Program-made: the position numbers and the translations under genes
Notes under the pieces: generated by a model
Seen by the model: the letters and a program-made list of their open reading frames with translations, nothing else
The model's database searches: none
Told to the model about the DNA's origin: nothing
Source of the DNA: a phage
Assembly: GCA_012813795.1 (NCBI GenBank)
Contig: GCA_012813795.1_4087.1
Strand: one strand, 5' to 3'
DNA: 64,000 bases
Part shown: piece by piece, positions 403-983 of the stretch
Layout of the letters: every line of letters starts with the position of its first letter
How positions within the stretch are numbered: position 1 is the stretch's first letter

Positions 403-906
403 TTATTTTACTTTGACAGTGCAGGTTACTTTCTTACCTTGGAATTCAATTTTCTGAACAAAAACAACATCACCCAAACGGTTAACAAAGTTTTCCATCA
501 TGTCAGTGTTGTTTTTGATCATAGTTGGTGAAAGTCCACGACCAGAAGTTTTCATTACTAAGTGAACTTGTTTCCCTTCACTTAGGAACTTCAGAGCAGA
601 TTTCAGTTTAACATCTAAATCATGTTCCTGTGTTTCATAAGTGAATTGAATTTCTTTAGTTGCAATTGCAGTTTGACGTTGTTTCTTCTGTGAAGCCTTT
701 TCTGTTTGTTTAAGTTCATATTTGTACTTATTCAAATCAGCAATTTTCACAACTGGCACATCGCCAGTATTAATAAGAATCAGGTCAAGTCCTGCATTGT
801 CAGCAAGCTCACGTGCTTTAGAAATTGCCATGACTTCACTAGAACCATCCTGTACGAGACGAACGGTTTTAGCAGTGATTTCGTTATTGGCAATAATAGA
901 TTTCAT
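403..906 (-). CDS. infC: translation initiation factor IF-3 homolog
   Basis: Translation aligns along its length with bacterial IF-3 (VRLV..G....LDL..I....PVVKI.D..KYKYE..K..K....KQ......KEI.F.......D...K......FL.EGK). Start moved to the internal ATG at 906 (MKSIIANNE...), which has a GGAG RBS. Confidence 0.8.
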
Positions 907-954
907 GTAATAAAAGCTCCAAATAGTTTGTAATAGGTGTTGGTTACAGTAAAG

Positions 955-983
955 ATTGTATAACAATAATTGATTTCTGTCAA
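955..983 (-). promoter_or_regulatory. sigma70-like promoter (TTGACA-N17-TACAAT) upstream of the IF-3 gene
   Basis: Minus strand reads cTTGACAgaaatcaattattgttaTACAATc about 45 nt upstream of the IF-3 start. Confidence 0.45.

Follow-up and report, generated by a model that had tools for sequence, protein, structure and literature searches.

An IF-3 homologue in an A4-like jumbo phage: family identity, upstream promoter site and an altered loop

Near one end of a 64,000-nucleotide stretch of phage DNA (GenBank assembly GCA_012813795.1, contig GCA_012813795.1_4087.1; the whole stretch is referred to as the window), the minus strand carries a gene whose product, as judged from family profiles and a predicted structure, is a translation initiation factor IF-3 in which a long helical linker, rich in Lys, connects two alpha/beta domains. 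We consider it fairly probable that this is a working IF-3, by which the host factor is supplemented or replaced outside the host's autoregulation, and which is carried by the whole group of RaK2/121Q/GAP32-like phages.

The occurrence of IF-3 in RaK2-like jumbo phages is established knowledge: such genes have been annotated for over a decade and are no new kind of gene. The paper on phage CBB (2017) identifies CBB_318 as IF-3, with homologues in GAP32, 121Q, PBECO4 and RaK2 (PMC5259590), and Iyer et al. (2021) suggested that in group 2.2 jumbo phages IF-3 and the KTSC protein might rescue ribosomes or support translation (PMC7824862). Al-Shayeb et al. (2020) included IF1 and IF3 among the translation genes of huge phages, with the proposal that host translation is intercepted or redirected (PMC7162821), and the paper on the related phage Sharanji (2025), which reports a hibernation-factor-like S30EA protein alongside IF-3, concludes that the function of IF-3 in phages 'cannot be definitively stated' (PMC11895373). 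The published accounts speculate, and in the literature searched we found no experiments on, or biochemistry of, any phage IF-3. Three features of the gene were not found stated in the publications consulted, namely its conserved sigma70 promoter, its ATG start as opposed to the ATT of the host gene, and the clade-wide loss of the R131/E134 loop.

Identity of the protein, limits of the gene and source phage

The initial annotation had described a phage homologue that aligns with bacterial IF-3 from end to end, and had proposed a search with profiles of the N- and C-terminal domain families. Both families are found above their curated cut-offs: Pfam IF3_N (PF05198) reaches 62 bits, the cut-off being 26.9, with residues 7-71 on profile positions 2-69 of 70, and Pfam IF3_C (PF00707) scores 51 bits against 34.8 (residues 82-165 on positions 2-84 of 86). 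The infC equivalog model of NCBIfam, TIGR00168, is matched with 107.7 bits at a cut-off of 60, and PHROG 9787, labelled 'translation initiation factor', is covered almost end to end (E = 1.5e-65; residues 1-167 on profile 1-167 of 168). A profile built from the phage family in turn recovers the solved IF-3 chains 5me0_Y, 5lmn_X and 8jsg_A, the last of which has the E. coli IF-3 sequence, with E-values from 4.5e-29 to 5.6e-28 over profile positions 1-153. The AF2 model (mean pLDDT 85) consists of strands and a helix (14-56), a further helix (58-80) and a beta-alpha-beta-alpha-beta-beta unit (83-166). When it was used as a Foldseek query, all matches at E <= 0.001 were IF-3 or mitochondrial IF-3, with full-length IF-3s as the best. 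Taken as separate domains, the target-normalised TM-scores were 0.84 for the C-terminal (1tig) and 0.74-0.83 for the N-terminal domain (1tif, 6o6d).

The coding sequence, its Shine-Dalgarno sequence and its promoter hexamers all lie on the minus strand (Table 1), a point that the initial annotation had left out. The product had initially been given as 168 residues long, a figure that holds for the codons with the stop included; the protein itself is one residue shorter. We take the ATG at 906 to be the real start, because the GGAG and the ATGAAA at this position are nearly invariant among the 10 relatives compared and the stretch upstream is not conserved as coding. A longer reading frame of 195 aa from an ATG at 990, present in a program-made list of open reading frames, was rejected: it covers the promoter and the stop of the upstream gene, and its extension is not conserved. 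The plus-strand reading frames within the IF-3 gene (706..933 and 722..910, both with TTG starts) found no support. The dN/dS ratio of the gene is 0.07 relative to phage A4 and 0.15-0.32 relative to more distant relatives, for which synonymous sites are saturated; the gene is thus under purifying selection and clearly maintained.

Table 1 Positions of the IF-3 gene, its upstream signals, its neighbours and the second promoter-like motif in the window
Feature	Position	Strand	Remarks
IF-3 (infC-like) coding sequence	403..906	minus	168 codons including TAA, 167 aa; ATG at 906..904; translation
Shine-Dalgarno sequence GGAG	917..920	minus	Precedes the ATG by 10 nt; almost unchanged among 10 relatives
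-10 hexamer TACAAT	955..960	minus	48 nt upstream of the ATG
-35 hexamer TTGACA	978..983	minus	Separated from the -10 by 17 nt; shares bases with the TGA stop (982..980) of the small upstream ORF
Downstream gene, ClpS-like 'protease adapter'	1..388	minus	Cut by the window edge; named after the A4 annotation
Upstream conserved small ORF, 64 aa	980..1174	minus	No family match; stop overlaps the -35
TGRGAC-N14-TGNTATAAT copies	7387-7415, 13102-13130, 19504-19532, 29544-29572	minus	
TGRGAC-N14-TGNTATAAT copies, remainder	42411-42439, 57238-57266, 61941-61969, 62802-62830	minus	

DNA identity to Escherichia phage A4, an Asteriusvirus of 355 kb (ON286972), amounts to 93.7% for the IF-3 region and to 96.4% over a 24-kb core segment. 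Judged by this similarity, the window belongs to an Asteriusvirus/RaK2-like jumbo phage, of which it represents a new isolate or variant at ~94-96% DNA identity to A4. The protein is 97.6% identical to A4_73 (USL83740.1), annotated as 'translation initiation factor IF3'. A tblastn search with the phage IF-3 gave matches in 96 of 50,697 phage records, and the near-full-length matches, at 51-77% identity, come almost exclusively from jumbo phages of ~310-386 kb (the exceptions being two shorter partial records), with hosts in Escherichia, Klebsiella, Salmonella, Erwinia, Yersinia, Serratia, Cronobacter, Pectobacterium and Xanthomonas. No T4-type phage is among the matches listed, which bears out the earlier remark that IF-3 is absent from the T4 gene set; T4 is, however, not the appropriate frame of reference, since the window comes from an A4-like Asteriusvirus jumbo phage, where IF-3 is conserved, syntenic and annotated.

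Promoter, leader and gene neighbourhood

The site upstream of the gene, TTGACA-N17-TACAAT, matches the sigma70 consensus at 11 of 12 positions, and its initial description as a near-consensus promoter of the sigma70 type, followed by a GGAG ribosome-binding site (920..917 in the direction of reading), holds up well. Sites with at least 11 of 12 matches number 11 in the window, where first-order Markov simulations predict 3.8 +/- 2.0, and all except one of them lie on the minus strand, the gene-rich one; from ~3e-5 expected sites per position, the chance of finding such a site in the 73-nt intergenic gap is about 1 in 1000. A sigma70-like site with 10-12 matches out of 12 is found 36-53 nt before the IF-3 ATG in nine of ten relatives, among them A4, 121Q, Turkey5, RaK2, Hallingskeid, Yen9-04, GAP32 and CBB, with spacer sequences that have diverged, a -10 that reads TATAAT, TACAAT, TATCAT or TATATT, and a -35 that reads TTGACA, TTGACT or TTTACT; Xanthomonas phage XaC1 is the sole one of the ten without a good match. 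At the level of sequence comparison, this conservation constitutes stronger evidence for a promoter of the IF-3 gene than the site statistics do. The published promoter tables of CBB (RpoD-like, divergent and late) do not list an IF-3 promoter and so lend it no independent support, and no transcriptome for the RaK2-like phage group was found in the literature.

Several other promoter-like sites were observed in the window. A second site with 11 of 12 matches, TTGACA-N17-TATGAT, at 1151-1179 on the minus strand, overlaps the start of the 64-aa upstream ORF; either this ORF starts further downstream, or the site also drives transcription into the IF-3 gene. The sole perfect match (12 of 12; TTGACA-N17-TATAAT) lies at 46389-46417, and further sites with 11 of 12 matches lie at 55641-55669 and 55397-55425, again all on the minus strand. 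A different motif, TGRGAC-N14-TGNTATAAT, occurs in eight copies where 0.39 are expected, all on the minus strand (Table 1), and the copy at 7387-7415 is the nearest one upstream of IF-3. In phage CBB, a 'divergent RpoD-like' promoter (TGAAACG...TGnTATAAT) has been reported upstream of DNA-synthesis genes, and the TGRGAC motif is of the same class; it is probably a phage-specific, perhaps middle, promoter class with an extended -10. The IF-3 gene itself sits within a block of DNA-replication and nucleotide-metabolism genes that also bears this second class.

The leader of the IF-3 gene is predicted to be unstructured: its minimum free energy is -2.1 kcal/mol, a stability that 180 of 200 shuffled sequences equal or surpass. 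We considered a structured leader or regulatory RNA and set the idea aside, as there was no Rfam match at E <= 1 in positions 1..3200 and folding was weaker than in the shuffled sequences.

The gene order Dda helicase, structural protein, small ORF, IF-3, ClpS-like gene and KTSC gene is kept in A4, 121Q, RaK2, GAP32, CBB, Yen9-04, XaC1, Turkey5 and Hallingskeid, and thus spans from Escherichia phages to one Xanthomonas phage; PBECO4 also carries IF-3 in this position. The ATG of the ClpS-like gene lies 14 nt past the IF-3 stop and is preceded by a ribosome-binding site, AAGGA, and no minus-strand terminator was found in 1..6000. Because the gap is so short and holds no terminator, the two genes are probably co-transcribed. 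The annotation of the downstream gene as a 'ClpS protease adapter' in the relatives seems weakly founded, the full-length A4 protein (181 aa) matching Pfam ClpS with 20.3 bits at a cut-off of 23 and over 36 residues. In A4, the gene that follows encodes a KTSC domain (35.5 bits), and the trio of IF-3, ClpS-like and KTSC genes is conserved over the whole phage group.

Comparison with host IF-3 and functional interpretation

A comparison with the host factor had also been proposed, and was made in an alignment that contained the window protein, 31 members of its family, IF-3 of E. coli and, from a library of 1.84 billion proteins, 122 diverse IF-3 representatives. The phage protein is 33% identical to E. 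coli IF-3 over 123 residues by BLASTP, and 30% over 162 aligned columns. The near-universal positions of IF-3 are kept, namely (E. coli residue followed by its phage counterpart) N16 (N7), R25 (R16), D52 (D41), P63 (P51), K72 (K60), Y75 (Y63), K94/E95 (K84/E85), D106 (D96), K110 (K100), G132/R133 (G122/R123) and G167 (G157), and within the phage family D96, K100, K102, R123 and Y63 are invariant or nearly so. The residues implicated in 30S binding and subunit dissociation, whose loss the initial annotation had named as one observation that would speak against it, are thus present as equivalents of D106, K110 and R133, with Lys in place of R112. The Arg residues at E. coli positions 112 (phage K102), 116 and 129 are all Lys in the phage, and Lys is the commonest residue among the 122 representatives at 112 and 116 and the second commonest at 129; similarly, Y107 is replaced by Leu, which is also the majority residue among the representatives. 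The linker of 20 residues belongs to the commonest class (63 of the 122 representatives), and the shortness of the N-terminal tail falls within natural variation. The functional weight of some of these positions is documented in E. coli. Binding is lost in K110L, and start-codon selection suffers in Y75N (infC362) (PMC7145577); D106 and K110 have been linked to the interaction with the ribosome, both binding and dissociation require R112, and R131, which lies in an exposed loop, is a proposed mRNA contact with a part in the discrimination of start codons (PMC3401457).

It is this last loop that sets the phage family apart. The sequence RFRGRE (E. coli 129-134) is replaced by KTSGRG at residues 119-124 of the window protein, such that R131 becomes S121 and E134 becomes Gly. 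Position 131 is not basic in any of the 32 family members, nor is position 134 acidic or Gln; among the 122 representatives, R or K is found at 131 in 97 and E at 134 in 94. Both features are absent together in eight representatives, four of which are among the nine most phage-like. Only five representatives match at E <= 1e-30 in the library of 1.84 billion proteins and identity to E. coli IF-3 is low, and a recent capture from the host was rejected on these grounds.

A further difference concerns the start codon. The annotated coding sequence of E. coli K-12 infC starts with ATT, and this start is the basis of IF-3 autoregulation. The window gene and nine relatives start with ATG instead; the self-repressing AUU start of the host type, which is a feature of host regulation and not a criterion for membership of the family, is not present in the phage gene.

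According to the reading that we favour, that of a working IF-3, host RNA polymerase would recognise the gene's own promoter and transcribe from it shortly after infection, and read-through from upstream phage promoters would probably add to the transcript, since no terminator was found on that strand in the region given above. The protein would bind the platform of the host 30S subunit as IF-3 does, keep the subunits apart, recycle 30S subunits after termination, and proofread initiator tRNA and start codon. Host infC is held down via its ATT start, a loop from which the phage copy would be exempt because it starts with ATG, and which it could therefore escape so as to raise or maintain IF-3 activity. 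Over the long infection of a jumbo phage, with host gene expression shut off, the phage factor would probably displace host IF-3 and sustain initiation on phage mRNAs. Early expression and a reprogrammed fidelity of initiation, both put forward in the initial annotation, remain inferences. Against the working-IF-3 reading stand the low identity to the host factor (30-33%) and the clade-wide replacement of the R131/E134 loop, because of which the activity of the phage protein may differ from that of the host's.

One could also speculate that the protein binds the 30S subunit and there discriminates start codons or classes of mRNA differently from the host factor, in favour of phage messages, since its clade is without the basic R131 and the acidic E134. 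This would be a concrete form of the earlier 'reprogramming' idea. The joint loss of both loop residues throughout the family (32 of 32 members against 8 of 122 representatives), the description of R131 as an mRNA-contacting, start-codon-discriminating residue (PMC3401457), and an ATG start that permits build-up independent of host autoregulation all point in this direction. Against them must be set the retention of Y75, the best-documented fidelity residue, and of the N-terminal domain, the absence of R or K at 131 in 25 of the 122 representatives as well, and the fact that the annotated phage genes start with ATG, GTG and TTG, from which no obvious need for relaxed fidelity arises; on balance we regard an altered discrimination as rather unlikely. 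Start-codon usage was tried as evidence of altered fidelity and discarded: the annotated starts of CBB are 583 ATG, 12 GTG and 10 TTG (ATG ~96%), with no others, and since all three are canonical class-I start codons in the discrimination by IF-3, this usage is uninformative. In its more elaborate form, in which a specialised clade keeps the 30S surface and Tyr75, has lost R131/E134, escapes the AUU autoregulation, and replaces host IF-3 so as to shift the mRNAs and start sites that are initiated, the proposal strikes us as somewhat less likely still.

Management of the ribosome pool is a somewhat slimmer prospect again: the phage protein might keep 30S subunits available by splitting idle or hibernating 70S/100S ribosomes or preventing their formation, or by releasing assembly factors, RbfA among them, and would so counter the host's stress-induced shutdown of ribosomes during infection. 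IF-3 is reported to free RbfA from mature 30S subunits and to matter under stress (PMC7145577), the pairing of an S30EA protein with IF-3 in Sharanji (PMC11895373) and the part in rescue or translation support that Iyer et al. suggest for IF-3 and its KTSC neighbour (PMC7824862) would fit, and the anti-association residues D106, K110 and R112 (as Lys) are kept. That the N-terminal domain and the linker have been retained in full nevertheless argues for selection on the complete IF-3 cycle and not on anti-association by the C-terminal domain alone, and this possibility overlaps with the working-IF-3 reading to an extent that sequence cannot separate. The idea that the protein is a decoy or inhibitor, which would occupy the IF-3 site on the host 30S subunit without supporting initiation and so shut down host translation, we consider highly improbable. 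It could draw on the ~30% identity to host IF-3, the changed R131 loop and a possibly early expression from a host-type promoter, but the phage needs the same ribosomes, no phage element that would confer ribosome specificity is evident, and both domains, the 20-residue linker and the functional residues have been kept, as they are in IF-3s that work. The working-IF-3 reading and these rivals are, as a whole, not separable by sequence alone.

The suggestion that altered fidelity might matter in a genome with non-canonical decoding found no support. Under the standard code, reading frames of at least 100 codons cover 91% of the window, and reading TAG, TGA or TAA as sense adds spurious reading frames with no meaningful merging of genes. 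Pairs of reading frames in the same frame that are split by one stop are ordinary neighbouring genes (eight end in TAA, one in TGA), and the window contains no tRNA genes; on these four grounds non-canonical decoding was set aside. The stops of the 88 long ORFs are TAA in 66, TGA in 18 and TAG in four, and a tRNA-Sup(CTA) has been reported for the relative CBB. Neither the rarity of TAG stops nor this tRNA amounts to evidence of recoding in the window.

Significance and comparison with known systems

Among the features by which jumbo and huge phages stand out are translation factors of their own. Taken together, the promoter, the ATG start and the loss of the loop make the role of a phage IF-3 directly testable in a cultivable E. 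coli phage system, and raise the questions of whether the host-type promoter leads to early expression, whether the ATG bypasses IF-3 homeostasis, and whether the loss of the loop affects start-codon discrimination. If it is true that the phage IF-3 alters the specificity of initiation, it would provide a direct example of a virus re-tuning a bacterial initiation checkpoint.

With E. coli IF-3 (InfC, b1718; PDB 8jsg, 5me0) the phage protein shares its two domains, helical Lys-rich linker, fold and near-universal residues, as well as a basic pI (9.4 in the phage, 9.5 in E. coli). It differs in being without nine N-terminal residues and in the length of the linker (20 residues versus 18), and whereas E. 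coli infC is part of the thrS-infC-rpmI-rplT operon, the phage gene is not. The closest counterparts are the IF-3s of the RaK2-like jumbo phages (A4_73, 121Q gp47, PBECO4, RaK2 ORF153, GAP32_313 and CBB_318), which align over the full length, at 97.6% identity for A4 and 51-77% for the others, and resemble the window's IF-3 in length (167-171 aa), gene order, ATG, GGAG and, in nine of ten, the position of the promoter. From the A4 protein it differs at four amino acids, none of substance, and its -10 reads TACAAT compared with TATAAT in 121Q and CBB. Phage-borne initiation factors are also known from metagenomic huge phages, in the form of IF-3 and IF-1 genes (PMC7162821), and from Agrobacterium phage Atu_ph07; these homologues, at 34-41% identity, occur in unrelated phage lineages and in other genomic contexts, and their IF-3 probably derives from separate acquisitions.
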